Of a stretch of 64,000 nt of DNA, positions 5,270 through 60,625 are shown in pieces; the first letter of the stretch is position 1; each line of letters begins with the position of its first letter. Location: NCBI GenBank assembly GCA_045104985.1, contig JBGCDA010000064.1:24127-88126 (forward strand). The letters are read 5' to 3'. The notes beneath the pieces were generated by a model, which searched no databases, was not told the DNA's origin, and saw nothing but the letters and a program-made list of their open reading frames with translations. Source of the DNA: Flavobacteriales bacterium (GTDB lineage Bacteria > Bacteroidota > Bacteroidia > Flavobacteriales_D > Sanyastnellaceae). The translations under genes were made by a program, and so were the position numbers.

Positions 5270-5278
5270 TTGCAACGC
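5270..5278 (+). repeat. GCGTTGCAA-family motif (TTGCAACGC on + strand), intergenic
   Basis: Exact 9-mer 48 nt upstream of the ytxJ ATG. Confidence 0.9.
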
Positions 5279-5326
5279 AAATTCCGCCATTAAATGTAAT
5301 TTTACACACTGATAAAATGCCCTGCT

Positions 5327-5659
5327 ATGAACTGGAAAATGATTACCTCAAAAGAAGATTTAGAAGAAGCCATAATGTTGAGTCATAAGAAACCAGCAGT
5401 GATTTTTAAGCACAGCACCAGATGCTCAGTGAGCATGATGGCTAAAAAGAGTTTAGAATATGGTTGGGACCTTAATGAAGATGAGGTAGAAACCTATTTT
5501 TTGGACTTGATCCAATACCGAGAAATATCTAATCAAATAGCCTTAGATTTAGAGGTAATTCATCAGTCCCCTCAGCTTATTGGGTTAAAGAACGGAGAAG
5601 TGTTTTATCATGCTTCTCATAGCGTGATAAGTGCAGACAGTTTTAAAAGCGCGCTTTAA
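5327..5659 (+). CDS. ytxJ: Bacillithiol-system redox-active thioredoxin-like protein YtxJ
   Basis: 110 aa with the monothiol motif FKHSTRCSVS characteristic of YtxJ. bshC is present in the same window. Confidence 0.8.
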   Translation: MNWKMITSKEDLEEAIMLSHKKPAVIFKHSTRCSVSMMAKKSLEYGWDLNEDEVETYFLDLIQYREISNQIALDLEVIHQSPQLIGLKNGEVFYHASHSVISADSFKSAL

Positions 5660-5661
5660 AG

Positions 5662-6258
5662 ATGGAAGAAGATCTTAAAATATTAAAGTTTAGGGTTATT
5701 CTAGATACTGAAGAAGACATCTTCAGAGATATAGATATTCCACATGACTGTTCATTTATAAATTTACACGAGTGCATACAGCAGTCGTTTGGGTTTTCAG
5801 GTATGGAAATGGCCTCATTCTACAGAAGCGGTGAGTTCTGGGATAAAGGAGAAGAGCTTCCACTTATGGATATGGGCGGAGTAGAAGAAGGAGCTCCAGG
5901 GCTGTCTATGAATGATTTAGTGCTTAAGGATCATATTTTTAAAGAACACGAACGGTTTTTATATGTGTATGACTTTTTAAGAATGTGGTGTTTTTATGTG
6001 GAAGTGGTGGAGATTTATAAGCCAGATCCTAAGGTGGATTATCCTGTAATGACTTTTGAGCTGGGTGAAGCTCCAGCAGAAGACAGTAAGGAAATAGACT
6101 TACTAGATGACTTAGATTTAGGTGATTTAGGAGGTTCTACTAAGCAAGAAAAAACAGGAGATCCAGAAATAGATGCTTATTTGGATGATATGGATGATGA
6201 TGAGAATTATGACGACATGGGCATGGAAAATCTGGATGACTATCAGGATCTGTTTTAA
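5662..6258 (+). CDS. pRiA4b ORF-3-like family protein with a poly-acidic C-terminal tail
   Basis: The N-terminal LKFRVILDTEEDIFRDIDIP...FGF...ASFY pattern is typical of the family. The tail is DDMDDDENYDDMGMENLDDYQDLF. Confidence 0.6.
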   Translation: MEEDLKILKFRVILDTEEDIFRDIDIPHDCSFINLHECIQQSFGFSGMEMASFYRSGEFWDKGEELPLMDMGGVEEGAPGLSMNDLVLKDHIFKEHERFLYVYDFLRMWCFYVEVVEIYKPDPKVDYPVMTFELGEAPAEDSKEIDLLDDLDLGDLGGSTKQEKTGDPEIDAYLDDMDDDENYDDMGMENLDDYQDLF

Positions 6259-7184
6259 TGTCATCTCAGAAATTATTAATATGCATAGTAGGGCCTACGG
6301 CCGTAGGCAAGACCAAAATAGCCATTTCAGTGGCTAAGCACTTCGGTGCTGAGATCATATCTGCAGATTCTAGGCAGATGTTTAAAGAAATAGCTATAGG
6401 CACAGCTAAACCTACACCCTCTGAAATAGCGCAGGTGAAGCATCATTTCGTAGATGTTTTGAACTTAGAAGATGATTACAGCGCAGGCCAATTTGAGCGT
6501 GAAAGCCTCGAGTTTTTAAACACCTATTTCCAGAATAATGATGTGTGCGTGTGTGCTGGTGGATCTGGTTTATATGTGAATGCATTGTTGTACGGATTTG
6601 ACGAGCTGCCATCAGACGAAGGAGTTAGAGCTGAGATAATAGCACTGTATGAGAAAGAAGGCATATCAGCGTTGCAACGCGAATTAGAAACCTTAGATCC
6701 TGAATATTTCAATTATATAGATCAATCCAATACTCAGCGTGTAATGCGTGCAATAGAAGTCTGTAGGGTTTCTGGAAAAAAGAACTCTGAGCTGAGAACA
6801 GGACAGAAAAAGGAGAGGCCGTTTAAAACCGCAGTCATAGGTTTATCAAGAGAACGAGAAGAACTTTACCGAAGAATAAACGCTAGGGTAGATCTTATGC
6901 TCAAAGAAGGATTGGTAGAAGAGGTGAAATCAGTTTATGATAGAAAACATTTGAACTCTCTTAATACCGTTGGTTACAGAGAGCTCTTCGGAGCTTTAGA
7001 TGGAGATTATGATATAGAAGAGGCTATAAGACTTATAAAACGAAACTCTAGAAGATTTGCTAAGCGCCAGCTTACATGGTTTAAACGGTTGCCAGAAATC
7101 AATTGGTTTCATCCAGAAGAAGATGACAAGCTCAGGAAACATTTAGACCAATTCTATAAGGGAGGAAAGCTATCTGAAGATTAA
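6258..7184 (+). CDS. miaA: tRNA dimethylallyltransferase
   Basis: P-loop GPTAVGKT, ISADSRQ, and TWFKR near the C-terminus. The start overlaps the upstream stop (TAATG). Confidence 0.92.
   Translation: MSSQKLLICIVGPTAVGKTKIAISVAKHFGAEIISADSRQMFKEIAIGTAKPTPSEIAQVKHHFVDVLNLEDDYSAGQFERESLEFLNTYFQNNDVCVCAGGSGLYVNALLYGFDELPSDEGVRAEIIALYEKEGISALQRELETLDPEYFNYIDQSNTQRVMRAIEVCRVSGKKNSELRTGQKKERPFKTAVIGLSREREELYRRINARVDLMLKEGLVEEVKSVYDRKHLNSLNTVGYRELFGALDGDYDIEEAIRLIKRNSRRFAKRQLTWFKRLPEINWFHPEEDDKLRKHLDQFYKGGKLSED
6669..6680. repeat. Full 12-bp palindrome GCGTTGCAACGC inside miaA
   Basis: Exact; read as Ala-Leu-Gln-Arg. Confidence 0.9.
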
Positions 7185-7198
7185 AAGATCCTTTAATA

Positions 7199-8364: not shown

Positions 8365-11316
8365 ATGCAAGGCTTTACTGGACATAAAATTCTACTACTT
8401 ACCATTGGCATCTTACTGAGTACTTTTCTATGGGCTCAGGATGACTTCTATATACACGGAACGGTTAAACAAGAATCCACTAATCAAAAGATGGATAATG
8501 TAGAGGTTCAAGTGTTTCAGGATGGGAAATTACTAGATAGCTATGCTACTTCAGGTAATTCTAAATATGAATTCCAAGTTTCTTTAGGTCACTTATATCT
8601 GTTTAAATTCAGTAAATCTGGATTTGTAAATAAGAGTGTGGAGGTAAACACAAAAAATATTCCTGAAGAAGATCAAGAAGGAGGTTTTAAGCTGAATATG
8701 GATATGACCCTCTTTGAATATGTAGAAGGTTTTAATGAAAGTATTATGGATGAACCTCTAGGTAAAGCAGGTTATGACGTAAATATGAATGACATCACTT
8801 TTAACTTGGGGCATACTACCCAAATGAAAAATAAGATAACTGCTGAAAGAGAGCGATTAGAAAATGCAGGTGCTTTAGAAGCTGAAAATAGAAAAAAGTA
8901 TGAAGATCTTATGATCCAGGGAAGTGATAATATGACCAAAGAGAAGTATGAAGGAGCCATAGGAAGTTATGAGTCAGCACTTGCGCTTTTCCCAGATGAA
9001 ATTGAAGCTCAGAATAAACTGCAGGAGGCTAAGGATTTATTGGCGTTGCAAAACAAGGATAAGGAGCTAGAGGCACAATACCAAGCACTTTTAAAGGAGG
9101 GTGAAAGCCTAATGAAAGGAAAGTCGTATGAAGATTCTAAGTCCAAATATGAAGAGGCTTCCTCACTAAAGCCAGATCAGAGCGAGCCTAAAGATAAAAT
9201 CAGAGAACTAGAAGAACTTATAGACGCTGCTGGAAACCAAGCCCAATTTGACGAATTTATGGCTGCTGGAGATGCGGATATGAGCACAGAAGAATACCAA
9301 TCAGCAGTAGATAATTACATGTCTGCCAGAGACATCATTCCTTCTGATAAAGGAGTTCAAAAGAAACTCACAGAAGCACAAGAAAAGCTGGCAGCATTAT
9401 TAGCGGCTGCAGATGCTGAGGCAGCTAAGGAAAAGAGATATAATGATTTAATAGATCAGGCTAACGCTTCCTTTGAAGCAGAAGACTACTCTTTATCTAT
9501 AAACCAGTATAATTCTGCTCTAGAAATAAAGCCCGATGAGGAATATCCTCAGAAGCAGATAGATGAGGCTAATAAGCGCATTAAAGATCTAGCAGCAGCT
9601 GCAGAAACAGATGCTGCCAATGCTGAACAAGCAGCCATAGATGCAGAGTATCAGGGGTTCATAGACATAGCTAATCAAGCGTTTACCCAGGAGGACTTTG
9701 ACAGAGCTAGAAGTAATTACCAAAGTGCTCTAGGAGTTAAGCCCACAGACCAATATGCTAAAAAAAGACTAGAGCGCATAGACGAGCTGGAAGCGGACGC
9801 TTTAACTTCGGCTGCCGAAAGTGAAGCCAATGCTGCACAAGCAGCTAAGGATGCTGAATACCAAGCATTCCTAAATAAAGCTAATGAGGCATTTACAAAT
9901 GACGATTTGACGTTTGCTAAATCTAATTATCAAGAGGCATTAGGCATAAAACCATCAGAAAAGTTCCCTAAGCAGAGAATAAAAAGAATTGAAGAAATTT
10001 TAGCAGAAAGAGATGCGGAGCTACTAGCAGATGACAAAGCTGCAGAAGAGGCTGCTGCTAAAGAAAGAGAGCTTTTAGCGGAGAGAGAAAGAAAGGCTGC
10101 CGAGAAAGCTGCTTCAGAGGAGGAAGAGAGATTGAGACTAGAAGGAGAGTTAGCAGAGAAAGAAAGACTAGCAGAGGAGGAGCGTAAACGAAAAGAAGAT
10201 GCTGATAAACGAAGAAATCTTACTAATAATATAGATGCTAACGCTGAGAAACAGGCTGAAGAGTTTTATCAGCAAATGAAAAAGACAGAAAACCAAGCCA
10301 GGTATGAATCACTTAATTCGAAGAAGGAAGAGTTAAAAAATGCCCTAACGGATAGTTCTACAGCAGCCGAAGATCAAGCTAAAGACGAAAATTCTCAGAT
10401 TAATACTGCTAAGAACGAGATGCAGAAGTTATACTCCGAGGGAGAAAATTATCAAAGAGATAAAAGAGAAAACTTCGATTCTGGTGATGAACGTATAAGA
10501 GCAGAAAATGAAGAAGTGAGATTGAATGCAGATGATAGAAGAAAGGCGGATGTGTTTAAGCTAGATGAGTTTAAGAAGAAAGACATCCAGGCTAAAGCAG
10601 ATGCCAATGGTAAAGCTGTAGATAGGAACGCAGAGAGCACTAGAAATGCTATGAAAGAAGTGTCTAAAGCTCAAAAAGGCTATAATGACACAGGGGAAGT
10701 TCTGAGAAAAGATAACGCCTATAAAATAGACCGTGTAAAGTCAGATATAGCTGAAATGAAAGATGATGGCGAAGATGAGCGCCAGAAATCTGAAAAAGAA
10801 AATCAGAAAGCGAAAGATGAAAGAGCTAAGTTTATAAAAGAAAATACGGAGCTTAACGATGAAAAACTTGCTTCTAACCTAGGGAAAATAGATAATGCCA
10901 AAGATGTAGCCAGTAATCTGGTAAATGAAACTGATAATCAGAAGTCAGGAAATTACGATGAAGTAGAATACCAGAAGGAAAAACGTGCAGAGATGCTAAC
11001 TTCTAATGATGAAAAAACCTTATTGCAAAGCAAAATTAACAGAGAAGAAGCATTTAATCTCAAAAAAGGTGAGCCTAAAAACTATGACGATTACATAGTT
11101 CCTAAAGGAAAAGAGGAATTAGCGGAAGGAGTAACAGAGAGAAGCTATGAAATCAATGAAGGTAGGAAGCTAGTAATAGAACGAACTGTTAAGATTGGAA
11201 ATAAGGTAGACACATTCCTTAAAGTAATTGACAAGAACGCCACTTATTACTTTAAGAATAATAGAAGCATAACTAAGAGCAGCTGGGACAGAGAAACCCT
11301 CTATGCACAAGACTAA
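8365..11316 (+). CDS. Large envelope protein with a signal peptide, a CarboxypepD_reg-like N domain, about 7 TPR-like repeats and a long charged coiled-coil region
   Basis: Signal peptide LLLTIGILLSTFLWAQ. Repeated Y..A...Y..AL.IKP.E.YP..I units. About 330 aa of K/E/D/A-rich low-complexity sequence. Confidence 0.7.
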   Translation: MQGFTGHKILLLTIGILLSTFLWAQDDFYIHGTVKQESTNQKMDNVEVQVFQDGKLLDSYATSGNSKYEFQVSLGHLYLFKFSKSGFVNKSVEVNTKNIPEEDQEGGFKLNMDMTLFEYVEGFNESIMDEPLGKAGYDVNMNDITFNLGHTTQMKNKITAERERLENAGALEAENRKKYEDLMIQGSDNMTKEKYEGAIGSYESALALFPDEIEAQNKLQEAKDLLALQNKDKELEAQYQALLKEGESLMKGKSYEDSKSKYEEASSLKPDQSEPKDKIRELEELIDAAGNQAQFDEFMAAGDADMSTEEYQSAVDNYMSARDIIPSDKGVQKKLTEAQEKLAALLAAADAEAAKEKRYNDLIDQANASFEAEDYSLSINQYNSALEIKPDEEYPQKQIDEANKRIKDLAAAAETDAANAEQAAIDAEYQGFIDIANQAFTQEDFDRARSNYQSALGVKPTDQYAKKRLERIDELEADALTSAAESEANAAQAAKDAEYQAFLNKANEAFTNDDLTFAKSNYQEALGIKPSEKFPKQRIKRIEEILAERDAELLADDKAAEEAAAKERELLAERERKAAEKAASEEEERLRLEGELAEKERLAEEERKRKEDADKRRNLTNNIDANAEKQAEEFYQQMKKTENQARYESLNSKKEELKNALTDSSTAAEDQAKDENSQINTAKNEMQKLYSEGENYQRDKRENFDSGDERIRAENEEVRLNADDRRKADVFKLDEFKKKDIQAKADANGKAVDRNAESTRNAMKEVSKAQKGYNDTGEVLRKDNAYKIDRVKSDIAEMKDDGEDERQKSEKENQKAKDERAKFIKENTELNDEKLASNLGKIDNAKDVASNLVNETDNQKSGNYDEVEYQKEKRAEMLTSNDEKTLLQSKINREEAFNLKKGEPKNYDDYIVPKGKEELAEGVTERSYEINEGRKLVIERTVKIGNKVDTFLKVIDKNATYYFKNNRSITKSSWDRETLYAQD

Positions 11317-11975: not shown

Positions 11976-13607
11976 ATGAAAAAACTACTGAGTATCCTAA
12001 TTATTTGTACCTGTGCTTACAACTGTACAGCGCAGATTTTCGTGAACGAAGTTATGGCTAGAAATAACTTTACCATAGCCGATGAATTTGGGGAGTTTGA
12101 TGATTGGATAGAAATATATAACCCTACCTCAGAAGCTGTAGATTTGGCAGGAGGCTATTTGACAGATGACTTAGGTGATTTAACAGCACACTTGATAGAG
12201 TCTGGCTCACCAGCGCTAACAACAGTTCCCGCTAATGGCTATCTCATTTTTTGGGCAGATAGTTCTCCAGAGCAGGGAGCTAATCACCTGAGTTTTTCGT
12301 TAAGCGCTGGAGGAGAATCGGTAGCCTTAGTCTTAGGAGATGGTGAGACAGTAGCCAATGCCATTCAGTTTCAGGATCAGGAAAACGATATATCTTTTGG
12401 AAGAGAAACAGATGGAGCCATAGCGTTGCAATACTTTTCTATACCTACCCCTAATGCCTCTAATGTAGATGTAACTCCAGACACTGAGCTCATTCATATA
12501 AATGAAGTGGTGTCAGAGAATACCTCTATCATATTTGATGAAACAGGCCAATACGAGCCTTGGATAGAACTCTATAACCCTAACGATTTTCAGGTAAATC
12601 TAGCTGGATATTCTATAGATTATAATAATGGAGAGTCTGTATATTTAATCGAAAACACAGACCCTAACACTACAGTAATAGAAGCTAATAACTACAAGCT
12701 GTTTTGGTGCGATGCACAGAGCATAGAAGGTCTGCTTCATACACCTTTTACTTTGGCATCTATTGGTACAATAGCTCTTATAGGCCCTGATGGTACTACT
12801 GTTCATGAAATCAGTTACACCAGCCCAGGTGAAGATAGTTCAGTAGGAAGTGAAGAGGATGGTTCGGATACCTACATCACGTTTGATATTCCTACTCCTA
12901 ATGTAACTAATCAGTTAGAGATAGTGTTTCCAGAAATACTATATATAAATGAGTTCATGGCCAGTAACCTCACAGACGTTACAGATAATGCTGGTGAGTA
13001 TGACGACTGGATAGAGATTTATAACCCTAACAGTTATCCCGTAGATCTTTCGGGGTATCATCTGAGCGATAATCTTGGAGGTGATTCTTGGGAAATCCCA
13101 TCTACCTACCCCGATTCAGTGACAGTGCCTGCGGAAGGGTTTCTAATGTTTTGGGCAGATAATGATGAGGAACAGGGAGTAAGACACACTAGTTTTAGAC
13201 TCACGTCTTCAGGAGAAGATGTTATACTTTATTCTACAGATAACTTCACCATGGCAGATTACATAGACTACCCACTCCAGAGTGAGGATGTGAGTTATGG
13301 CAGAGAGATAGACGGTGGAGAGCCTTGGGTATATTTTATTCCCGGAGAGACTACACCCGAAGCCTCTAATAGCGGTACAGATAACGTTACTGACACGTAT
13401 AGAGGTGAATTTAGCTTTTATCCAAATCCTGTCATTCATGAAGTGATATTTTCAGACCGAGTTTCTACGGCAGAGGTGTACACACTTTCAGGAGCACTAG
13501 TTATAAACGAGAAGAATACTAGAGGTTTGGATTTAAGTAGTTTAGAGTCAGGGGTTTATTTTATGACTCTAGATAGTGTTTATTCTCATTTGCTAGTAAA
13601 AGAGTAG
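11976..13607 (+). CDS. Secreted protein with three lamin-tail-like (LTD) domains and a T9SS type A C-terminal sorting domain (ORF-track GTG 11940 replaced by ATG 11976)
   Basis: Three copies of INE(V/F)M/V..N...DE.GE.DDWIE(I/L)YNP....V(D/N)L.GY.L.D. Signal peptide MKKLLSILIICTCAYNCTAQ. The C-terminus FYPNPV...GVYFMTL is typical of a T9SS CTD. Confidence 0.75.
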   Translation: MKKLLSILIICTCAYNCTAQIFVNEVMARNNFTIADEFGEFDDWIEIYNPTSEAVDLAGGYLTDDLGDLTAHLIESGSPALTTVPANGYLIFWADSSPEQGANHLSFSLSAGGESVALVLGDGETVANAIQFQDQENDISFGRETDGAIALQYFSIPTPNASNVDVTPDTELIHINEVVSENTSIIFDETGQYEPWIELYNPNDFQVNLAGYSIDYNNGESVYLIENTDPNTTVIEANNYKLFWCDAQSIEGLLHTPFTLASIGTIALIGPDGTTVHEISYTSPGEDSSVGSEEDGSDTYITFDIPTPNVTNQLEIVFPEILYINEFMASNLTDVTDNAGEYDDWIEIYNPNSYPVDLSGYHLSDNLGGDSWEIPSTYPDSVTVPAEGFLMFWADNDEEQGVRHTSFRLTSSGEDVILYSTDNFTMADYIDYPLQSEDVSYGREIDGGEPWVYFIPGETTPEASNSGTDNVTDTYRGEFSFYPNPVIHEVIFSDRVSTAEVYTLSGALVINEKNTRGLDLSSLESGVYFMTLDSVYSHLLVKE

Positions 13608-13672: not shown

Positions 13673-13681
13673 GCGTTGCAA
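13673..13681 (-). repeat. GCGTTGCAA-family motif (GCGTTGCAA on + strand), intergenic
   Basis: Exact 9-mer 66 nt after the LTD gene stop. The context TAGCGTTGCAATACT is identical to the copy at 12421. Confidence 0.9.
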
Positions 13682-16460: not shown

Positions 16461-16476
16461 TAGCGTTGCAACGCTA
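16461..16476. repeat. 16-bp perfect palindrome TAGCGTTGCAACGCTA, intergenic
   Basis: Lies between the rpsA terminator and pyrR, 36 nt before the pyrR ATG. Confidence 0.9.
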
Positions 16477-22204: not shown

Positions 22205-23551
22205 ATGAGATTCATTTTTTGCATAGCGTTTATCCTGTTGAGTTCATTGACTGAGGTGTCTGGTCAAATATCTTGTTCAATTTTAATTCTTGATGAAATT
22301 ACTCAAAAGCCTGTGGCTGATGTAAATATTTCTTCTGAAAATGGTTATTACCTGGGTAAAACAAACGTTGAAGGAGAGTTTCTGATTAAATCTATTGCAA
22401 CGCAAATCCTCACCCTAGAGCATGTTTCTTATACTGCTGAACAACTAACGGTAAAAGCAAACTCCAAAAGTTTAACTGCAGAGCTTACTCCTAAAACAGA
22501 ACTTTTAGATGGAGTAGTCATATCCGCAAAAGAGCCTGAGGTGGTGTATAAAGATGAAGTCTATCATGCTTCTGATTATGAATTCTTAGATAAGAATAAC
22601 CTCTTAATTCTTACTTATGAGAAAAAGAGAATGTTTAAGCGTGAGTCACAGGCTGATTTGGAGATTTTAGAGCGTTGCAAATTGGTATGCTTAGATGATA
22701 ATTTAGAAGTTAAAACCGAATCGAGACTAATTCCTGAAGCTCTAGAAATTCGTAAAGATGCTTACAATCAGTGTTTTTTGAAGTCTACTAAGAGCATCTT
22801 TTTTATAATGATTACAGATCAAGGTATAGTCTTAGATGAAATGCCTGACGACTTTTCGCTTAATAAGAATCAGGATTTGGTGTTAAATGAGTCTGAAGGA
22901 ATTCAGCTAGTGTCAGATTATGAAGAATCTTATCCTGAATTTAATTACTACATAATTAAGCAGGGCGAAGAATTAGAAAAAGTATGTACTATTAATGATG
23001 AAAAATTGATGCATTTATTTAGAGCACAATACAGAAATTTTCAGCCGAGAGAAAAATTGGAAGCCTATAGAATGGAGCTAAAGACAGGAATAGATAAAGA
23101 AGTTATTTCTGGTTACATGTCTGGATTTCATAAGTCTATGTATTTTAAAGCGATATATGCACCTGCGTTTCATACCAATTCTGGCTTTGTGATTTTCAAT
23201 CATATTACTGATAAAGCTATTAACTACAATCAGACAGGAAATGTCTTAGATAGCACCGGAATATCCTATCATTTAAAACCAAGAAAAAGTGGCTGGGCTA
23301 ATCACCTTATCCAGGATAAAGTAACCGGGGATATTTACACTTATTTTCAGGTGAATGGTAATACCTCTTTACATAGAATAAATCTAGACACAGGTGAACT
23401 AGAAGAAAGCATTAAACTGAGTTACAGATACCCTGATCAAATAGGGGTGTTAAACGGAGAGGTTTACTACCTCTACAGGCCTTTCGGTTCTAGTCAGAAG
23501 ATGTATGTCTACAAAGAAGGAAGCCCCATAGAAGATTTCCTAGCTAACTAG
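22205..23551 (+). CDS. Hypothetical secreted protein with a CarboxypepD_reg-like N-terminal domain
   Basis: Signal peptide, then ILDEITQKPVADVNISSENGYYLGKTNVEGEF. The remaining 350 aa have no motif I recognise. Confidence 0.55.
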   Translation: MRFIFCIAFILLSSLTEVSGQISCSILILDEITQKPVADVNISSENGYYLGKTNVEGEFLIKSIATQILTLEHVSYTAEQLTVKANSKSLTAELTPKTELLDGVVISAKEPEVVYKDEVYHASDYEFLDKNNLLILTYEKKRMFKRESQADLEILERCKLVCLDDNLEVKTESRLIPEALEIRKDAYNQCFLKSTKSIFFIMITDQGIVLDEMPDDFSLNKNQDLVLNESEGIQLVSDYEESYPEFNYYIIKQGEELEKVCTINDEKLMHLFRAQYRNFQPREKLEAYRMELKTGIDKEVISGYMSGFHKSMYFKAIYAPAFHTNSGFVIFNHITDKAINYNQTGNVLDSTGISYHLKPRKSGWANHLIQDKVTGDIYTYFQVNGNTSLHRINLDTGELEESIKLSYRYPDQIGVLNGEVYYLYRPFGSSQKMYVYKEGSPIEDFLAN

Positions 23552-24960: not shown

Positions 24961-25845
24961 ATGAATATACAGGGTTTAGGCGTTGCAATGATTACTCCAC
25001 TCACCAAAGAAGGAGAAATAGATTTCCAGGCACTTAAAGAAATCACAGAAAGACAGATTAGTGGTGGTGTAGATTTTTTAGTGGTTATGGGCACTACTGG
25101 TGAATCAGTTACTTTAGAGCTTTCAGAGAAGAGAAAAGTGTTAGATACCGTGCTTAGCGTTAACTCTAAAAGAATTCCTATCATTTATGGTTTAGGAGGA
25201 AATAACACTAAGGCTGTGGTTAGTGAATTAAAAACCTTTAACCTAGAAGGTGTTAGTGCCATACTTTCTGTAAGTCCTAGTTATAATAAGCCGACTCAAG
25301 AAGGAATTTTTCAGCATTTTAAGCATATTTCTGAAGCGTCTCCTGTGCCGGTCATGGTGTATAACGTGCCAGGGAGAACGGCATCTAATGTCACTGCTGA
25401 AACGTGCTTGAGAATAGCTCACGAATTACCTAATGTATTCAGTGTAAAAGAGGCTAGTGGAGATTTAGATCAAATAAAGAGTATTATAACTCACGCTCCA
25501 GAAGGTTTTCTCATTTTTGCAGGAGATGATGGATTAGCCATTCCTGTTATAAAAGCAGGTGGAGCAGGTGTTATTTCTGTAGTAGGAAATGCGCTGCCTA
25601 AGATGTTTTCAGAATTGGTTACAAGTGCCATGAATGACGAGTGGATTAAAGCTAAAGAGCTGGATCAGTTATTCCAACCACTCATTCCACTACTCTTCAA
25701 AGAAGGAAACCCAGCCGGCATTAAGGCCATTATGGAAATTAATGGTGAGTGTACTTCTGTGGTCAGGTTACCGTTAATGGAAGCGTCTAGTAGGTTAAAA
25801 GAGGAGTTAAAATTACAACTACAGTCTTTTCAGACTGTAGTTTAA
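24961..25845 (+). CDS. dapA: 4-hydroxy-tetrahydrodipicolinate synthase
   Basis: GTTGES motif, active-site Lys context VKEASG, 294 aa. Confidence 0.93.
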   Translation: MNIQGLGVAMITPLTKEGEIDFQALKEITERQISGGVDFLVVMGTTGESVTLELSEKRKVLDTVLSVNSKRIPIIYGLGGNNTKAVVSELKTFNLEGVSAILSVSPSYNKPTQEGIFQHFKHISEASPVPVMVYNVPGRTASNVTAETCLRIAHELPNVFSVKEASGDLDQIKSIITHAPEGFLIFAGDDGLAIPVIKAGGAGVISVVGNALPKMFSELVTSAMNDEWIKAKELDQLFQPLIPLLFKEGNPAGIKAIMEINGECTSVVRLPLMEASSRLKEELKLQLQSFQTVV

Positions 25846-31030: not shown

Positions 31031-31039
31031 GCGTTGCAA
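31031..31039 (-). repeat. GCGTTGCAA-family motif, intergenic
   Basis: The minus strand reads TTGCAACGCAAAAAATCTAGATATG, 13 nt from the start of lipoprotein gene 30412-31017. Confidence 0.9.
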
Positions 31040-34354: not shown

Positions 34355-34386
34355 CAAAAAAGGAAGGCCGAGGCCTTCCTTTTTAA
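34355..34386 (-). terminator. Intrinsic terminator of the 1150-aa gene (bidirectional shape)
   Basis: AGGAAGGCC-GA-GGCCTTCCT flanked by A6 and T5. Confidence 0.8.
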
Positions 34387-34445
34387 TAAATATTTCTAAG
34401 TTTTAATTAAGGAGTTACATTTAACAGTGTCCTTATGCTTTCTGT

Positions 34446-39152: not shown

Positions 39153-39156
39153 GTTA

Positions 39157-39573: not shown

Positions 39574-39658
39574 TTAATTTCTCTTGAATTTCAAATATCT
39601 TTCTTCGGCCTTAAAAGTAATACTATGTGCTGAGAAGTTCTTAACGGTGTTCTTTTCA

Positions 39659-40723: not shown

Positions 40724-40741
40724 CTTAGGCTAAATTATGAA

Positions 40742-40750
40742 TTGCAACGC
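40742..40750 (+). repeat. GCGTTGCAA-family motif, intergenic
   Basis: TTGCAACGC 76 nt upstream of the choice-of-anchor B gene ATG. Confidence 0.9.
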
Positions 40751-47223: not shown

Positions 47224-48855
47224 GTGATTAGAGTTTTATGTCTTTTCTGTTTGGTGTGTGTGTGCGTGGTTTTTTCGCGTTGCAATGGCGACTCAGAACA
47301 GTCTCAAAAAAAAGTATTTCGCTATAATGAAGCCGCTGGAGTGAATACTCTAGACCCTGCCAATGCTCGCTATTTAGAAGACATGAGAGTAATAGATCAG
47401 ATCTATGATGGTCTTTTATATTTAGATGATTCTATGAGGGTAAAACCTTCTTTGGCTAAATCATATAAAGTTTCTGAAGATGGTCTAGAATACACTTTCA
47501 TTCTAAAAGAGAATATTCATTTTACTGAACACGAAGCCTTTCCAGATGAAGCCTCTAGGCAAATTACTGCCCAGGATTTTGTGTATAGTTTTAACCGCAT
47601 TTTAGACAAAAAAGTGGCCTCTCCTGGCATGTGGATATTCAGCCAGGTAGATAGAAATAGGCATGATGGGTTTCGTGCTGTAAATGATTCTACACTGATC
47701 ATCTACCTTAAAGAGCCATTTCCTGCGTTTAGTGGGATCTTAACTATGCAGTATTGCAACGCAGTTCCTGAAGAAGTAGTTAATTTTTACGGAGAAGACT
47801 TTAGAAATAACGCTGTAGGTTGTGGTCCGTTTAAACTAGCTTTTTGGTTAGAAGGAGTCAGCTTAGTGCTGCATAAGAACCAGGAGTACTGGAGGGCACA
47901 GAATGAAGGAAGAGACATTCCGAAATTAGATGCGGTTCGAGTAGATTTTATAAGAGATAAGTCTACCATGTTTCTGGATTTTTTAAAAGGTAAGTATGAT
48001 TTCATTTCTGGTTTAGACGGCAGTTATAAGGATGAATTGCTTACTCAGAATGGTGAACTTAGTCCTGCGTATGCCGAGAAAGTGAAGTTTCAGAAAGTAC
48101 CGTTTATAAAAACAGATTACATAGGTTTATTGGTAGATGACAGCCTACTGTCTCATAATAGTCCGCTGAGATCTAAAGCTTTTAGACAAGCGCTGAATTA
48201 CAGTGTAAACCGAAAAAAGCTCTCTAAGTACCTCAGAAATAACTCTGTGTTTCCTGCAGAAAATGGCTTTCTTCCAAAAGGCTTCGATTCTCATGGAAAT
48301 CATAACCATTCAGGTTATAGCTATGATTTAAAATTGGCTAAGGAGCTAATAACTGCTTCAGGGTTTTCAGATCTAACAGAATCTTTAGTCATAAGTACTA
48401 CTGGTGAGTATGTAGACATATGTGAATATTTACAATACCAATGGGAGCAGCTGGGTATTCCAATAAAGGTAGAAACACTTCAGAGCTCAAACCATAGAGA
48501 CTTGGTGGCCAATTCAGAAATAGAGGTGTTTAGAAAAAGCTGGTTAGCAGATTACAGTGATGAAGAAAACTTTCTAGGGCTGTTTTACAGTAAGAACTTT
48601 GCACCCAATGGCCCCAACTATACCCACTTTTCTAATACAGAATTTGACCAATTGTTTGAGAAGGCCATGACCATCTCCGATTATAATGAGAGAAAACACC
48701 TCTATGGAAGAATGGATAGTCTCATTCTGGAAGAAGCTCCTGTAGTGCCATTGTTCTATGATCAAGTATCTCATTTCTTGAATGTTAGGGTGGTTAATTT
48801 TTCTACTAATTCTGTAAATATGATAGATCTGTCTGAGGTAGATTTAATGGAGTAA
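47224..48855 (+). CDS. ABC transporter substrate-binding protein, family 5 (peptide/nickel type), probable lipoprotein
   Basis: GTG start, signal peptide with Cys (FSRC), and SBP_bac_5-like length and pattern (NTLDPA.., ..WLADY.D..NFL). Confidence 0.85.
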   Translation: MIRVLCLFCLVCVCVVFSRCNGDSEQSQKKVFRYNEAAGVNTLDPANARYLEDMRVIDQIYDGLLYLDDSMRVKPSLAKSYKVSEDGLEYTFILKENIHFTEHEAFPDEASRQITAQDFVYSFNRILDKKVASPGMWIFSQVDRNRHDGFRAVNDSTLIIYLKEPFPAFSGILTMQYCNAVPEEVVNFYGEDFRNNAVGCGPFKLAFWLEGVSLVLHKNQEYWRAQNEGRDIPKLDAVRVDFIRDKSTMFLDFLKGKYDFISGLDGSYKDELLTQNGELSPAYAEKVKFQKVPFIKTDYIGLLVDDSLLSHNSPLRSKAFRQALNYSVNRKKLSKYLRNNSVFPAENGFLPKGFDSHGNHNHSGYSYDLKLAKELITASGFSDLTESLVISTTGEYVDICEYLQYQWEQLGIPIKVETLQSSNHRDLVANSEIEVFRKSWLADYSDEENFLGLFYSKNFAPNGPNYTHFSNTEFDQLFEKAMTISDYNERKHLYGRMDSLILEEAPVVPLFYDQVSHFLNVRVVNFSTNSVNMIDLSEVDLME

Positions 48856-48866: not shown

Positions 48867-48875
48867 TTGCAACGC
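48867..48875 (+). repeat. GCGTTGCAA-family motif, intergenic
   Basis: TTGCAACGC 54 nt upstream of the ECF sigma start. A TATCTTTA box lies 17 nt downstream of its TTG. Confidence 0.9.
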
Positions 48876-48929
48876 GCAACCTTTACTATCTTTAGAAAGT
48901 CTTTAAACCAAGAAAACAGAACCTAAAGT

Positions 48930-51450: not shown

Positions 51451-52500
51451 ATGAAAAAACTTTTAGCGATATCCTCTCTTGTTTGCTTAACTGCTTTCAG
51501 CTTTGCGCAAAACCTAGTGCCAAACCCTGGTTTTGAATCATTTACTACCCTTCCTTCTGATTTAGGTCAGTATGATCTTTGTGCTCCCTGGGGTAATGCC
51601 CAAAGTACAGATGCAGATCCTGACTACTATCATCTGAATGCATCACTTCTTGCAGATCTTCCTGTAACCTCAGTGGCGGATGTCTCTCCATATGAAGGAG
51701 ATGCGGTAATGGGATTCACTGCTACTGGTAAATCAGGATCTAATTATAGAGAATATTTAACCGTTAAATTAAACGCTCCATTAACCATAGGAAATAAGTA
51801 CAGAGTTTCTTTTAAAATTACTAATGGAACCATATTTAATCATGCTTTAAGCGGTTTAGGAACAGATAAAATAGGCGTTTCGTTCAGTATGAATGAGCAA
51901 GTGCAATCTGCCAACGCACCACTTAATGCTACTCCAGTTTACGAAACTTCTGATGTCATTTATTCAAGAGCTTGGGAGACCATTCGGTTTAACTTCAGAG
52001 CTACCGATAATTCTGAGTATATCACTATAGGTGTGTTTGGTGATGATTCTGGGAAGAATATTTCTTTCCAAGAAGGGAATTCAAACCTGGCTGAGCTATC
52101 TTATTATTTTTTAGATGATGCAGAAGTAATGCACATTCCTGATGTAATAGTAGAAGCTGAAATTACCGATAGAGACCCTAGATTAACCATAGAGGAAGAA
52201 GTGGAGTCCGATTTTCCGTTTTTTGTTCCGAACGCATTTACACCAGACGGAAACGGAAATAATGATGTGTTCAACATCATCCCTGGTAAAAAAGGAATTG
52301 ACTACACCATATTTGTCTTTGACAGATGGGGTAACCAAATTTACTCAGCTGAAAACGGTAAGCCTGAGTGGGATGGGCGTTGCAATGGAGCTTTGTGTCC
52401 ATCAGACATTTACATTTGGGTCATAAAGTATGAAACTCAAAACGAGGATGGTGAAACTGTGAATAAAGAAGAAACAGGTACTATTCATTTGTTAAGATAG
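51451..52500 (+). CDS. Secreted protein with a CBM4_9-like N domain and a T9SS type B (gliding-motility-associated) C-terminal sorting domain
   Basis: NLVPNPGFE start after the signal peptide. The C-terminus is PNAFTPDGNGNNDVF.......Y.I.VFDRWGN.I........WDG......P...Y.W. Confidence 0.8.
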   Translation: MKKLLAISSLVCLTAFSFAQNLVPNPGFESFTTLPSDLGQYDLCAPWGNAQSTDADPDYYHLNASLLADLPVTSVADVSPYEGDAVMGFTATGKSGSNYREYLTVKLNAPLTIGNKYRVSFKITNGTIFNHALSGLGTDKIGVSFSMNEQVQSANAPLNATPVYETSDVIYSRAWETIRFNFRATDNSEYITIGVFGDDSGKNISFQEGNSNLAELSYYFLDDAEVMHIPDVIVEAEITDRDPRLTIEEEVESDFPFFVPNAFTPDGNGNNDVFNIIPGKKGIDYTIFVFDRWGNQIYSAENGKPEWDGRCNGALCPSDIYIWVIKYETQNEDGETVNKEETGTIHLLR

Positions 52501-55104: not shown

Positions 55105-55118
55105 TGCGTTGCAACGCA
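55105..55118. repeat. 14-bp perfect palindrome TGCGTTGCAACGCA, intergenic
   Basis: Lies in the ruvX/dapD divergent region, 28 nt and 46 nt from the two start codons. Confidence 0.9.
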
Positions 55119-58878: not shown

Positions 58879-58887
58879 GCGTTGCAA
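58879..58887 (-). repeat. GCGTTGCAA-family motif, intergenic
   Basis: Exact 9-mer between the orphan plus-strand terminator and the pruA terminator. Confidence 0.9.
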
Positions 58888-58912
58888 CCTTCCTAACGGC
58901 AGGCAAGCAGCA

Positions 58913-58949
58913 TAAAAAAAGCCTTCAGAAATAGTTCTGAAGGCTTTTA
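58913..58949 (-). terminator. pruA intrinsic terminator
   Basis: AGCCTTCAGAA-ATAG-TTCTGAAGGCT stem; a T7 run follows on the minus strand. Confidence 0.8.
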
Positions 58950-58971
58950 AAGCAATTAGTTAGTTCTATTC

Positions 58972-60597
58972 TTATCCTAAAAACGGGTACTTATAATCTC
59001 TAGGAGAAACGAGTGTTTCCTTAATAGTTCTAGGAGATACCCATCTTAACAGGTTCAATGAACTACCTGCTTTATCATTGGTTCCAGAGCCTCTGGCTCC
59101 TCCAAATGGCTGCTGACCTACTACAGCTCCAGTAGGCTTGTCATTGATGTAGAAATTCCCTGCAGAATTTTCTAAAGCCTTCATAGCTTCTACTATGGCG
59201 TATCTGTCTCCACTAAAGATGGCACCTGTAAGTGCATATTCAGAGGTTTGATCTACTAGCTCTAGTGTAGCTTTCCAGTCTTTATCTTCATAGACATAAA
59301 TGGTAATTACAGGCCCGAAAATCTCTTCACACATAGTTCTGAATTTCGGGTTAGAAGTTACTACCACAGTAGGCTCTACGAAGTATCCTTTAGACCCATC
59401 GTAATTTCCTCCTGCTATAATTTCTGCATCATCTTGTTCCTTTATGTAATCTATATAAGATGAAATTTTCTTGAAAGAGTTCTCATCTATAACTGCATTA
59501 ATAAAGTTACCGAAATCCTCTGGAGATCCCATTTTGAATGACTTTACATCAGCCACTACCTTTTCTTTTACCTCTGGCCAAATGCTCTTAGGAATATATG
59601 CTCTACTGGCAGCAGAACACTTCTGGCCCTGAAACTCAAAAGCTCCTCTAGAAATACCAGTAGCCACTTCTAACGGGTGTGCAGAGGGGTGAGCTACTAT
59701 AAAGTCTTTACCTCCAGTTTCTCCTACTATTCTCGGGTAAGTCTTGTATTTAGAAATGTTGTTTCCTATTTCTTTCCATAAATGCTTGAAAACTGCGGTG
59801 CTTCCAGTAAAGTGCAGACCAGCTAAATCTGGGTGGTTAAATACCACATCTCCTGCATCTGGGCCATCTACAGTAACCATGTTAATGACACCATCTGGTA
59901 ATCCAGCTTCTTTAAATAACTCCATAATTACCTGAGCAGAATACACTTGAGAATCTGCTGGTTTCCATACCACTGTGTTACCCATAAGCGCCACACACGC
60001 TGGAAGATTAGCTGCTATGGCGGTAAAGTTAAATGGAGTCACACAGAACACAAATCCTTCTAAAGGTCTGTACTCAAGTCTGTTCCATACACCATCTCCA
60101 GACTCTGGCTGCTGTGCATAAATGTCTTGAATGTAAGACGCATTAAATCTTAAGAAATCTATAAGCTCACACGCAGCATCTATTTCTGCCTGATAACAGT
60201 TTTTACTCTGCGCCAGCATAGTAGAAGCGTTCATTTTAGCTCTGTAAGGTCCAGCTAGAAGGTCTGCGGCTTTAAGGAAAATAGAAGCTCTGTGTTCCCA
60301 AGACATGTTAGCCCAGTCTTCTTTGGCAGCTAATGCGGCATCTATGGCATCTTTTACATGCTGTTTAGTTCCGTAATTAAAATGACCTAACACATGCTGA
60401 TGGTCATGTGGAGGACTCATGGTTTTCTTGTTTTCAGTTCTTACTTCTTCAGCCCCTATATACATAGGAACGTCTATAGTAGAGTTGAACATTTCTTTAT
60501 ACTTAGCTTGTAGTTCCTCTCTTTCAGGAGTTCCAGGAGCGTAGCTTAAAACCGGTTCATTGATAGGAAACGGTACATTGTAGATTCCATTTGGCAT
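58972..60597 (-). CDS. pruA: L-glutamate gamma-semialdehyde (1-pyrroline-5-carboxylate) dehydrogenase
   Basis: Aldehyde dehydrogenase motifs ETGGKD and catalytic Cys FQGQKCSA; 541 aa. Confidence 0.92.
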   Translation of the reverse strand: MPNGIYNVPFPINEPVLSYAPGTPEREELQAKYKEMFNSTIDVPMYIGAEEVRTENKKTMSPPHDHQHVLGHFNYGTKQHVKDAIDAALAAKEDWANMSWEHRASIFLKAADLLAGPYRAKMNASTMLAQSKNCYQAEIDAACELIDFLRFNASYIQDIYAQQPESGDGVWNRLEYRPLEGFVFCVTPFNFTAIAANLPACVALMGNTVVWKPADSQVYSAQVIMELFKEAGLPDGVINMVTVDGPDAGDVVFNHPDLAGLHFTGSTAVFKHLWKEIGNNISKYKTYPRIVGETGGKDFIVAHPSAHPLEVATGISRGAFEFQGQKCSAASRAYIPKSIWPEVKEKVVADVKSFKMGSPEDFGNFINAVIDENSFKKISSYIDYIKEQDDAEIIAGGNYDGSKGYFVEPTVVVTSNPKFRTMCEEIFGPVITIYVYEDKDWKATLELVDQTSEYALTGAIFSGDRYAIVEAMKALENSAGNFYINDKPTGAVVGQQPFGGARGSGTNDKAGSSLNLLRWVSPRTIKETLVSPRDYKYPFLG

Positions 60598-60616
60598 GTG
60601 TCGTTGTGTTTTTTTT

Positions 60617-60625
60617 GCGTTGCAA
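60617..60625 (-). repeat. GCGTTGCAA-family motif, intergenic
   Basis: 19 nt upstream of the pruA ATG (minus strand), preceded on the + strand by T6. Confidence 0.9.

Follow-up and report, generated by a model that had tools for sequence, protein, structure and literature searches.

A 9-nt word about 100 times over-represented in an uncultured marine Flavobacteriales genome resembles the uptake sequences known from Haemophilus and Neisseria

In known uptake sequences, the frequency drops 92- and 82-fold from zero to one mismatch; in Haemophilus and Neisseria their one- to three-mismatch forms are over-represented, too (PMC1939737). Uptake sequences roughly double the tripeptides that they encode and, in the genomes known to carry them, the choice of the reading frame correlates with preferred codons (PMC2817400). 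The function of the cyanobacterial HIP1 (GCGATCGC) was long obscure and is now tied to natural transformation (PMC5861425; 10.1101/2024.09.10.611283; 10.64898/2026.06.24.733823), HIP1 being proposed as an uptake or transformation motif; its conservation has been read as evidence for selection and for a role in the nucleoid (PMC5861425). As for the Flavobacteriales, Riemerella, also a member of this order, is naturally competent and R. columbina prefers its own DNA, no uptake sequence having been identified in the latter (PMC7965970).

The word described here, TTGCAACGC, occurs at approximately 100 times its chance expectation in an uncultured marine Flavobacteriales genome, as counted in the window, i.e. 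the whole 64-kb stretch of DNA that was analysed. The source organism is known as a MAG only. The window contains 29 matches at 26 loci versus 0.24 expected—on average one exact word per 2.4 kb—and none of 100 shuffled windows reached this number of matches; plus-strand (13) and minus-strand (16) copies are intermixed. An exact copy stands at every position given in the preliminary description, save '32686', which is actually 32676. Three of the 26 loci (6669, 16463 and 55106) carry the perfect palindrome GCGTTGCAACGC, the remaining 23 are non-palindromic, and the enriched unit is the asymmetric 9-mer. Concerning its exactness, the one-mismatch forms number 9 versus 7.5 expected, the enrichment not being clear, and the profile of the mismatch load is 102x at 0, 1.0x at 1, 0.64x at 2 and 0.71x at 3 mismatches. 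The forms with one to three mismatches are thus not over-represented and even mildly depleted under simple nulls, whereas the order-3 Markov null gives a 3.9x over-representation of the one-mismatch forms; versus permuted control words, the depletion of near-cognates is borderline (3.7th and 16th percentiles). Among the most avoided 4-mers outside the motif, GCAA/TTGC and CAAC/GTTG rank 3rd and 4th. No conserved flank was found around the copies past an A at +3 (24 of 29 copies, p=1e-8; extended form TTGCAACGCnnA), apart from a weak upstream g-c-a, and the left flank is weakly palindromic.

Being short, exact and over-represented, with some copies palindromic and intergenic, the word might be a polar signal for recombination or segregation (Chi-like or KOPS-like) or a vestige of a miniature mobile element (REP/MITE). 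This origin is scarcely credible and has been largely refuted, since the strands are balanced (13:16) and interleaved over the 64 kb, half of the loci are genic, the flanks are unconserved—which rules out a mobile element—and the copies at the cleanly aligned intergenic sites 44235 and 48867 came from substitution, with no indel.

The loci are distributed very unevenly: the spacers, about 4.0 kb in all (6% of the window), hold 12 and the roughly 60 kb of coding sequence 14, in agreement with the roughly 13-fold higher intergenic density reported in the preliminary description (binomial p=1.3e-8). Inside genes the word is still about 60-fold enriched, the coding copies being 4 sense and 9 antisense. 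The coding loci are as follows:

1394..1402, minus strand: TTGCAACGC in a gene for an FAD-dependent protein (524-2092), sense, Leu-Gln-Arg; kept in relatives L081, L084 and L088, L172 having ACGTTGTAA
2003..2011, plus strand: TTGCAACGC in the same gene (524-2092), antisense, Ala-Leu-Gln; window-specific, relatives having CGTAAGAGC or AGTAGTGCC at the orthologous position
2410..2418, plus strand: TTGCAACGC in a 2-oxoacid dehydrogenase E1 gene, sense, Leu-Gln-Arg; kept in all close relatives examined but L090, which is without a copy
6669..6680, unstranded: palindrome GCGTTGCAACGC in miaA, Ala-Leu-Gln-Arg; no copy in L084, one half in L081 (Arg = AGA), both halves in the window and L088 (Arg = CGC)
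9043..9051, minus strand: TTGCAACGC in a TPR protein gene, antisense, Ala-Leu-Gln; window-specific, L081 having GCATTCCAA and L084 GTTTTACAC
12423..12431, minus strand: TTGCAACGC in an LTD/T9SS-tail protein gene, antisense; window-specific, relatives having CAGTTTCAA (Gln-Phe-Gln)
22395..22403, plus strand: coding TTGCAACGC, sense, frame Ile-Ala-Thr-Gln; window-specific
22672..22680, minus strand: coding TTGCAACGC, antisense; window-specific
24980..24988, minus strand: TTGCAACGC at dapA (DHDPS) codon 6, antisense; kept in L174, with a two-mismatch form in L175
28029..28037, plus strand: TTGCAACGC in a DDAH-like gene, antisense, Ala-Leu-Gln; L175 has GCATTGCAA
44078..44086, plus strand: TTGCAACGC in an ABC exporter gene, antisense; window-specific
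47277..47285, minus strand: TTGCAACGC at codon 17 of a solute-binding protein gene, antisense; kept in L091
47754..47762, plus strand: TTGCAACGC in the same solute-binding protein gene, sense, Tyr-Cys-Asn-Ala; L091 has TTGCAATGC
52377..52385, minus strand: TTGCAACGC in a CHU_C/T9SS protein gene, antisense; window-specific

The cause of the word in genes acts at the level of DNA, not of the protein. The motif spells 3 of the 7 LQR tripeptides, where codon usage predicts 0.02, and 6 of the 10 ALQ tripeptides, where it predicts 0.05, i.e. 9 of 17 together versus 0.07 expected; the total of 17 itself compares with 5.9 expected in the window. Moreover, this spelling uses rare codons, namely GCG, TTG and CGC, with shares of 10%, 10% and 6% in their respective codon families.

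Alignment with relatives was obtained for 22 of the loci, 8 of them being common to at least one relative and 14 window-specific. These alignments show that copies were built in situ by point substitution, in genes as well as in spacers. The motif-making changes are synonymous at 47754 (AAT to AAC, from the relative's form), 28029 (GCA to GCG, toward the rarer codon) and 6669 (AGA to CGC), and non-synonymous at 9043 (Ala-Phe-Gln to Ala-Leu-Gln) and at 12423, where the relatives' Gln-Phe-Gln became Ala-Leu-Gln; in the spacers, the copies at 44235 and 48867 correspond position by position to other bases in the relatives, without any indel. Several copies required 3-5 substitutions, transversions among them, which speaks against the word being a by-product of biased repair, with a 5mC methyltransferase and a Vsr-like enzyme converting near-cognates to the cognate. 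An enriched perfect word accompanied by depleted related words is qualitatively the signature of such very-short-patch (VSP) repair, and the motif has a CpG and a TGCA core; known VSP effects, however, shift word frequencies by far less than 2-fold, as against 100-fold here. The 64-kb window showed neither a methyltransferase nor a vsr gene, and this explanation is regarded as improbable.

The word is restricted to one lineage. Other Bacteroidota contain 13 copies in 2.35 Mb, taken as the background, the close relatives about 21 loci in about 163 kb (Poisson p=5e-17 for the first 16 loci, in 123 kb) and the window 26 loci in 64 kb, corresponding to enrichments of about 24-fold in the close relatives and about 75-fold in the window.

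Concerning the spacers, several copies meet the Bacteroidota sigma-A -7 box, TAnnTTTG, which has been placed at -12 to -5 (PMC9723704). The intergenic loci are as follows:

5270..5278, plus strand: TTGCAACGC between two divergent genes, with gaps of 48 nt to brxC/ytxJ and 98 nt to the opposite start codon; relatives have unrelated sequence
13673..13681, minus strand: TTGCAACGC, antisense, 65 nt past a stop codon and 265 nt before an S1 gene; the spacer in L172 has an independent TTGCAACGC copy in the opposite orientation
16463..16474, unstranded: palindrome GCGTTGCAACGC, 38 nt before a pyrR-like gene, about 35 nt past a terminator-like hairpin and T run; perfect -7 box TATATTTG 26 nt downstream
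31031..31039, minus strand: TTGCAACGC, sense, 6 nt past a terminator hairpin (19 bp) and 13 nt upstream of an ATG; missing from the 92%-identical relative L173
32647..32655, minus strand: TTGCAACGC, sense, 57 nt upstream of the GAPDH gene; its TTG closes a perfect -7 box TACCTTTG; window and L173 are identical here, L174 having TAACTTTGtactaa and L175 TAAATTTGcacaaa
32676..32684, plus strand: TTGCAACGC, inverted partner of 32647 across a 20-nt spacer; the pair is kept in L173 in the same 29-nt register, L174 having GTATTGCAA at 32676
40742..40750, plus strand: TTGCAACGC in a divergent spacer, 76 nt before an LVIVD gene (sense) and nearer, at 18 nt, to a CoA-transferase start (antisense to that gene); kept with its flanks in L091
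44235..44243, minus strand: TTGCAACGC, sense, 4 nt upstream of the ABC exporter ATG; the TTG completes a perfect -7 box TAAGTTTG, and this box recurs motif-free in L091 (TAAGTTTGctcggt)
48867..48875, plus strand: TTGCAACGC, sense, 54 nt before the ECF sigma gene, adjoining a conserved block GCGCAACCTTTnnTATCTTTA; L091 retains the block with TTTTTTCGG where the motif stands
55106..55117, unstranded: palindrome GCGTTGCAACGC in the ruvX-dapD spacer; on the dapD strand it follows the end of a perfect -7 box TATATTTG after 4 nt
58879..58887, minus strand: TTGCAACGC, sense, 30 nt past the pruA terminator, with the next start codon 265 nt further on
60617..60625, minus strand: TTGCAACGC, sense, 19 nt before the pruA ATG, its TTG ending a perfect -7 box TAGCTTTG

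Nine of these loci lie 4-76 nt ahead of a start codon, the gaps of 48, 38, 13, 57, 76, 4, 54, 28/46 and 19 nt all being as previously described, and the full range of distances to the ATG is 4 to 265 nt. The gene names given earlier proved broadly right by Pfam (BrxC, PyrR-like PRTase, GAPDH, ABC exporter, ECF sigma, RuvX and DapD, with pruA as an aldehyde dehydrogenase). The preliminary description had noted a shared polarity of the copies toward start codons, and had taken the functionally unrelated downstream genes as pointing to a general promoter, leader or nucleoid-organising role instead of a pathway regulon. Its counts, densities and gaps hold, but the polarity falls short of significance: either orientation in a divergent spacer faces a start codon, which leaves only the co-directional spacers to judge by, and among the seven cases of 'same polarity' two (5270 and 40742) lie in divergent spacers. 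The co-directional spacers give 5 sense to 1 antisense (p=0.22), or 6:2 with the inverted pair counted (p=0.29).

The rejection of a regulon was well judged, and the tendency of intergenic copies to lie near promoters is upheld, three of 12 (32647, 44235 and 60617) completing a perfect -7 box (p=0.011) and the copy at 55109 following one by 4 nt. Given a box at -12 to -5, the predicted transcription start falls within the motif, leaving 5' untranslated regions of about 6, 21 and 59 nt; together with the nine loci close to start codons and the 5:1 ratio, this would suit a general promoter, leader or 5'-UTR element acting in sense on the downstream gene. Such a role is nevertheless quite improbable. 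The 5:1 ratio is not significant and partly circular, 14 of the 26 loci are coding and mostly antisense, the spacing varies both to the ATG and to the box (overlap, 4 nt past, 26 nt before), no sequence conserved at a fixed spacing was found downstream of the aligned copies, and no Rfam family matched the loci in the window. CAACGC follows none of 540 candidate -7 boxes in other Bacteroidota. At two of the three fused copies (32647 and 44235) the relatives keep the box without CAACGC, so that the promoter predates the motif. Since -7 boxes already supply the TTG, many intergenic copies would be sense and close to a start codon; the overlap explains the sense polarity in part.

The word could instead be the selected site of an abundant DNA-binding protein, either nucleoid- or chromosome-organising or linked to a methyltransferase as in HIP1, the selection acting on chromosome function rather than through an uptake bias. 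The persistence of intergenic copies between lineages only about 66% identical in nucleotide sequence (the copy at 40742, flanks included, in L091 and the inverted pair in L173) would agree with this, as would the palindrome at three loci with the weakly palindromic left flank, and the avoidance of GCAA/TTGC and CAAC/GTTG, as if decoy sites had been purged. To our knowledge, exact words that recur every 2.4 kb and impose amino-acid replacements and rare codons are not a feature of any nucleoid site family described so far. The enriched unit is an asymmetric 9-mer, with 23 of 26 loci non-palindromic, the near-cognate depletion is borderline, and no methyltransferase or candidate binding protein was found in the window. 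The precedent of HIP1, whose conservation was taken for selection and a nucleoid role (PMC5861425), is offset by the recent work on HIP1 itself, which favours transformation. Altogether, a selected binding site is possible, if rather unlikely; a nucleoid-organising role may apply, no result being specifically in its favour.

TTGCAACGC resembles the 'self-tags' in the DNA of Haemophilus and Neisseria more than it does a signal of promoters or leaders, and may well be a genome-wide 'self' word of the USS/DUS/HIP1 kind, spread by molecular drive, with a putative role in uptake, a reading on which our judgement is evenly divided. From this likeness we infer a competent host, with the uptake or transformation machinery as the reader of the word. 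A DNA-handling machinery—a receptor of the natural-transformation pathway being the likeliest candidate—would recognise the exact 9-mer in double-stranded DNA, and fragments or alleles bearing the word would be preferentially taken up and recombined, so that point mutations creating or improving a copy would spread. Purifying selection on proteins, promoters and terminators would set the surviving positions: copies would accumulate in the scarce free intergenic DNA, settle in genes in the tolerable frames Leu-Gln-Arg and Ala-Leu-Gln, and arise directly after sigma-A -7 boxes as well. No competence genes were found in the 64-kb window. The rare-codon frames, the strong intergenic bias, the near-cognates that are not enriched and the single inverted pair count against an uptake sequence, and the conserved intergenic copies (40742 and the pair 32647/32676) fit a selected binding site equally well.

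Compared with the known systems, the sigma-A -7 box shares with three intergenic copies the TTG, in sense and just upstream of genes, but most copies are without a box and the word is equally a feature of coding regions. HIP1, too, is exact and hyper-abundant (15-300x), occurs both within and between genes and is conserved at orthologous positions; it is, however, a true palindrome read by two methyltransferases, whereas TTGCAACGC is asymmetric, with the 12-bp palindrome at only 3 of 26 loci. From the USS of Pasteurellaceae (e.g. AAGTGCGGT) and the DUS of Neisseriaceae (e.g. GCCGTCTGAA) the word differs in sequence and phylum (Bacteroidota), in its mildly depleted near-cognates and rare-codon frames, in the one inverted pair of the window, 32647/32676, not being a terminator, and in that no dialects were seen; the 13-fold intergenic bias found here also appears stronger than that of USS and DUS. 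With both it shares the short, asymmetric and exact form of 9-10 nt, at about 0.5-1 copy per kb on both strands, the location in genes and spacers, the origin by point mutation, the inflated tripeptides, the restriction to a clade with the density varying among relatives, the A/T-rich 3' flank and the approximately 100-fold over-representation that drops steeply at one mismatch (PMC2817400, PMC1939737).

An exact search on both strands of the window finds the word TTGCAACGC 29 times, while dinucleotide-preserving shuffles of the window yield a mean of 0.24 copies and a maximum of 2. Because three loci (6669, 16463 and 55106) are perfect 12-bp palindromes, GCGTTGCAACGC, the 29 copies represent 26 loci, corresponding to a density of 0.41 loci per kb. 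A gene model of long non-overlapping ORFs (60.0 kb coding) places 12 of them in spacers and 14 in coding sequence, the spacers being 13-fold denser (binomial p=1.3e-8), which reproduces the counts of the preliminary description; the phenomenon it reported is real and unusual. Its motif-to-start-codon distances are all correct, as are its coordinates with one exception (32686, which is really 32676), and Pfam supports its gene names for BrxC, the PyrR-like phosphoribosyltransferase, the 487-aa GAPDH, the ABC exporter, the ECF sigma factor, RuvX, DapD and the aldehyde dehydrogenase. Three gene regions of the window exhibit features of their own.

Gene regions of the window with features of their own
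31126-32589: 487-aa GAPDH, its Gp_dh_N domain beginning only at residue 137; the N-terminal extension of ~130 aa keeps its length across the clade (all homologues 485-487 aa)
60661-61592: RES-domain toxin and Xre/MbcA/ParS-type antitoxin pair directly upstream of pruA, motif-free
34446-37898: 1150-aa ORF without a Pfam match, inside the longest motif-free stretch (32684-40742); the region is variable, since two related loci (L091 and L174) hold a transposase and a 3539-aa HYR-repeat protein at the same position

The word is sharply delimited. One-mismatch variants amount to 9 against 7.5 expected, and virtually all occurrences of TGCAACGC (30) and TTGCAACG (29) lie within the 9-mer. In an alignment of all copies the flanks are unconserved with three exceptions: an A at the third base on the 3' side (24 of 29 copies, p=1e-8), a richness in A over that side in general and, 5' of the word, a weak g-c-a, which forms part of the palindrome's other half. 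It should be pointed out that the spacing of the copies (CV 0.77 vs 0.95 for random placement, p=0.12) is not significantly even. The Rfam scan of the window returned no family, and a literature search for the TTGCAACGC string yielded primers only. Inside coding sequence the word is still 60-fold enriched; this, together with its exactness and the functionally unrelated flanking genes, excludes a transcription-factor operator and agrees with the preliminary description in arguing against a pathway regulon. Over the 64 kb the copies are divided into 13 on the plus and 16 on the minus strand, interleaved with each other, and this balance argues against polar signals of the Chi or KOPS kind.

Concerning the origin of the copies, 22 of the 26 loci could be aligned with orthologous sequence, at ~66% nucleotide identity. 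Eight of them (1394, 2410, 6669, 24980, 32647, 32676, 40742 and 47277) are, as a raw count, common to at least one relative, and the remaining 14 are specific to the window, the relatives showing unrelated or partly similar sequence where these copies stand. No indels occur at motif sites wherever the spacers align cleanly, and the changes that create the word can be read directly from the alignments.

Motif copies created by substitution
47754, coding: synonymous AAT to AAC creates the motif
28029, coding: synonymous GCA to GCG creates the motif, the new codon being the less frequent one
6669, coding: synonymous Arg AGA to CGC, by which a single copy becomes the palindrome
12423, coding: non-synonymous, Gln-Phe-Gln to Ala-Leu-Gln
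9043, coding: non-synonymous, Ala-Phe-Gln to Ala-Leu-Gln
52377, coding: non-synonymous change
44235 and 48867, spacers: copies formed by substitution

In the spacer of 13673, moreover, the relative L172 has a copy that is independent and oppositely oriented. The alignments thus indicate that the copies accumulate via point mutation under a directional force. Biased repair as an explanation of the motif is considered improbable. An REP- or MITE-type element is excluded by the unconserved flanks and the substitutions in place, half of the loci being, in addition, coding; mobile-element remnants or, given the balanced strands, polar signals can be granted hardly any probability. A rival reading deserving more weight takes the word for a binding site under selection, recognised by some abundant system of DNA binding or methylation. 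The conservation of intergenic copies and the partial palindromy of the motif speak for it, and we regard it as possible, if rather unlikely; among the 57 genes of the window there are no competence genes, no cognate DNA receptor and no DNA methyltransferases, the genes other than those named at the outset being ordinary housekeeping genes.

The cost of the word is visible in the proteins. Of the 14 coding loci, nine are read as TTG-CAA-CGC (Leu-Gln-Arg, LQR) or, on the opposite strand, GCG-TTG-CAA (Ala-Leu-Gln, ALQ), and the codons concerned are rare in this genome (GCG 10% of Ala, TTG 10% of Leu, CGC 6% of Arg). The motif nevertheless spells 3 of 7 LQR and 6 of 10 ALQ tripeptides, for which codon usage predicts 0.02 and 0.05, respectively, and the two tripeptides together occur 17 times as compared with 5.9 from amino-acid composition, i.e. 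approximately three times more often. A similar distortion of the proteome is known from uptake sequences, which roughly double the tripeptides they encode (Findlay and Redfield, PMC2817400). The abundance of the motif has its cause at the level of DNA and not of protein or RNA. As regards codon usage in general, CAG accounts for 44-45% of Gln codons in the window at a GC content of 37%, and the share of TTG among Leu codons falls from 25% in distant relatives through 16% in near relatives to 10% in the window, and that of GTT among Val codons from 38% through 33% to 25%; this lineage-specific drop in the use of TTG, CAA and GTT runs parallel to the motif density.

The relatives were divided into two tiers. 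The far tier, formed by 79 dapD loci of GTDB species representatives and 80 metagenomic pruA loci with a total length of 2.35 Mb, contains 13 copies, i.e. 0.0055 per kb. The near tier (L001, L081-L091 and L172-L175), whose conserved proteins are 85-92% identical to those of the window with only ~66% identity of nucleotides overall, contains ~21 loci in ~163 kb, i.e. 0.13 per kb or about 24-fold enrichment (Poisson p=5e-17, calculated from the first 16 loci over 123 kb). From these two densities and the 0.41 per kb of the window it follows that the enrichment is a property of the clade, reaching its maximum in the lineage of the window. The clade is marine, its relatives including Tara and other ocean assemblies. 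The records of L001 (CAZTVP010000385.1), L040 and L053 name Comamonadaceae or Limnohabitans MAGs, yet their dapD is 75-87% identical to that of the window, so that the labels are probably a binning error. When motif 'dialects' were sought in the 79 dapD loci, the striking 9-mers, such as GCGTTTCAA (16 times in L066), proved to be tandem repeats, unrelated and not dispersed. Such arrays in unrelated Bacteroidota imitate over-represented 9-mers in a k-mer screen: they lie in L066 at 18837-19160, in L047 at 1-80 and 4747-4800 and in L045 at several places, and among these three loci they consist of a 21-bp unit with TTGAAACGC (~15 copies), of the heptamer CAGTTGG and of AGTTGAGG. Within the near tier, the base after most copies in the KOPF/Logan relatives L081, L087 and L088 is C (TTGCAACGCC, frequently as CCT), unlike in the window, where C is the rarest base directly after the motif (3 of 29); this could be a flank 'dialect', although the copies are few and several of them are orthologous.

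The preliminary description had emphasized that all seven non-palindromic intergenic copies upstream of genes share one polarity, sense and close to a start codon. This is partly built in: between two divergent genes a copy faces a start codon whichever way it is turned, so that those at 5270 and 40742, which are placed in this manner, are uninformative; the latter stands just 18 nt from the gene to which it is antisense. Counting only co-directional spacers, five copies are sense (31031, 44235, 48867, 58879 and 60617) and one is antisense (13673), a 5:1 split (p=0.22) that becomes 6:2 (p=0.29) with the inverted pair 32647/32676 added. The coding copies lean in the opposite direction, with 4 sense and 9 antisense. 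The sense polarity of the intergenic copies is, therefore, a trend and not a result.

A likely source of that trend is found in the -7 box, the Bacteroidota sigma-A promoter element TAnnTTTG. At 3 of the 12 intergenic loci, which is above chance (p=0.011), a perfect box runs into the motif, its terminal three bases being at the same time those with which the motif begins.

Intergenic copies adjoining a -7 box
44235: fused to the -7 box, TAAGTTTGcaacgc
60617: fused to the -7 box, TAGCTTTGcaacgc
32647: fused to the -7 box, TACCTTTGcaacgc
55109: 4 nt after the box TATATTTG

In Flavobacterium psychrophilum the box spans positions -12 to -5, and 5' UTRs have a median length of 24 nt (PMC9723704); the 5' UTRs of ~6, 21 and 59 nt implied at the box-fused copies are plausible. 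In L091 the ABC exporter is preceded by the same TAAGTTTG, which continues as ctcggt and not as the motif; upstream of GAPDH, L174 and L175 have TAACTTTGtactaa and TAAATTTGcacaaa, respectively, and the full motif, together with the inverted partner at an unchanged register of 29 nt, is present only in the closest relative L173 (92% identity). At both genes the box thus predates the motif. Among 540 candidate -7 boxes of other Bacteroidota, none is followed by CAACGC, the part of the word beyond its leading TTG, and 29 continue as CAA, a weak tendency. The simplest reading of both features is that a promoter box gives the word a head start of three bases where constraint is weak; copies formed there would automatically be sense and near a start codon. 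Other spacer copies occupy spare DNA separating a terminator from the gene that follows: 31031 lies 6 nt beyond a 19-bp hairpin, 58879 lies 30 nt beyond the pruA terminator and 16463, judged by eye, is placed likewise. Polarity and proximity to start codons would accordingly be a secondary consequence of the places where copies survive and of the head start at the box, rather than the function of the word.

The copy at 48867 adjoins a conserved, ECF-type promoter-like block, GCGCAACCTTTnnTATCTTTAnAnAGTC (48876-48905), upstream of the ECF sigma gene; L091, a lineage with ~66% nucleotide identity, keeps the block without the motif, and the block resembles an autoregulated ECF promoter (AAC ... 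GTC). An ECF-type promoter with TGCAAC of the motif itself as the -35 element was rejected, there being no -10 element conserved 16-17 nt downstream. A scan for sigma-70 promoters gave fewer matches than shuffles (45 vs 53.9 and 49 vs 62.6) and is thus uninformative, as expected for Bacteroidota. The minus strand of 32590-32646, the predicted 5' leader of the GAPDH gene, contains the hairpin GGCTTTCAATGAAAAAGCC, kept with compensatory-looking changes in all four lineages, including L173, L174 and L175 (gactttcaatgaaaaagtc, ggcctaaataaaaaagacc); this could represent a structured leader, although one without an Rfam match. Taken as a general promoter or 5' leader element, the role proposed in the preliminary description, the motif would have to act from distances of 4-265 nt, with no conserved downstream partner, with 14 of 26 loci coding, at a polarity of p=0.22 and with box fusion at only 3 of 12 loci. 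A general function of this kind does not hold in view of these data, and its probability is very low, even slightly below that of biased repair.

The words nearest to the motif are scarce. Outside the 29 copies, TTGCAA occurs 5 times vs 33.5 per 64 kb in far relatives, TGCAAC 6 vs 37 and GCAAC 16 vs 119. GCAA/TTGC and CAAC/GTTG are the third and fourth most under-represented of the 136 tetranucleotides, with observed/expected ratios declining from far (0.95 and 1.15) through near relatives (0.72 and 0.94) to the window (0.61 and 0.62). Ahead of them stand only CCGG (observed/Markov 0.35 over the whole window) and CGCG (0.55), whose scarcity, like that of TCCGGA (none in the window vs ~28 in relatives), looks like restriction-site avoidance unrelated to the motif. 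The profile over 0-4 mismatches runs 102x, 1.0x, 0.64x, 0.71x and 0.98x. This near-cognate 'moat', dramatic against distant relatives, is nonetheless suggestive and not robust, since it is borderline with 300 permuted control words (16th percentile for the two-mismatch ratio, 3.7th for three mismatches) and partly gone under an order-3 Markov null, where three-mismatch forms reach 0.86x. One-mismatch forms depend on the null as well, being 1.0x at zero order, 0.65x against relatives and 3.9x over-represented under the order-3 Markov model; an uptake sequence would be expected to lose its over-representation step by step, with one- and two-mismatch forms keeping some enrichment. In Haemophilus and Neisseria, under-represented high-mismatch classes have been described as the pool on which the drive draws (Bakkali, PMC1939737); purging of decoy sites is an alternative reading of the scarcity.

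The exact word, its origin by substitution, its codon and amino-acid cost and its clade restriction lead us to rank first, with about even confidence, a drive motif resembling USS (the uptake sequence of Pasteurellaceae), DUS (that of Neisseriaceae) and HIP1 (the hyper-abundant word of cyanobacteria). To our knowledge, experimentally established uptake sequences come only from two proteobacterial families, HIP1 being now a candidate. More specifically, and somewhat more tentatively, TTGCAACGC could be the first DNA-uptake or 'self-recognition' sequence of Bacteroidota, with a putative receptor in an abundant uncultured clade of marine Flavobacteriales and sequence-specific transformation in the ocean, the drive rewriting codons, colonising the bases after -7 boxes and draining or purging near-cognates. 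If true, this would be a third, independent case, making sequence-tagged self-recognition of DNA a recurrent solution, and it would provide a handle towards a Bacteroidota DNA receptor, a barcode assigning metagenomic DNA and phages to the clade and a hint as to how related flavobacteria become transformable. The interaction between drive and promoter would matter to anyone taking over-represented upstream words for regulatory motifs. Among the Flavobacteriales, natural competence is known from Riemerella; R. columbina shows a preference for DNA of its own, an indirect precedent, with a k-mer search finding no uptake sequence there (PMC7965970).

With regard to the known systems, HIP1, now proposed to act in transformation (10.1101/2024.09.10.611283; 10.64898/2026.06.24.733823), differs in being a palindrome read by methyltransferases, whereas the enriched unit here is asymmetric, the palindrome being found at only 3 of 26 loci and TTGCAA only 5 times outside the copies. 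The motif, nine bases long, asymmetric and invariant, with ~0.4 copies per kb counted over the two strands, resembles USS and DUS in the following: these are short, exact, over-represented words at one per 1-2 kb (here 29 copies vs 0.24), of point-mutation origin and with codon and tripeptide distortion (here seen in the alignments and the codon test), and restricted to a clade (here ~24-fold in close relatives, background in distant ones and no dialect found). Common to USS/DUS, HIP1 and the motif are the formation of copies through substitution, within genes as well as between them, the codon and amino-acid cost, and the occurrence in one clade only with a graded density among relatives.
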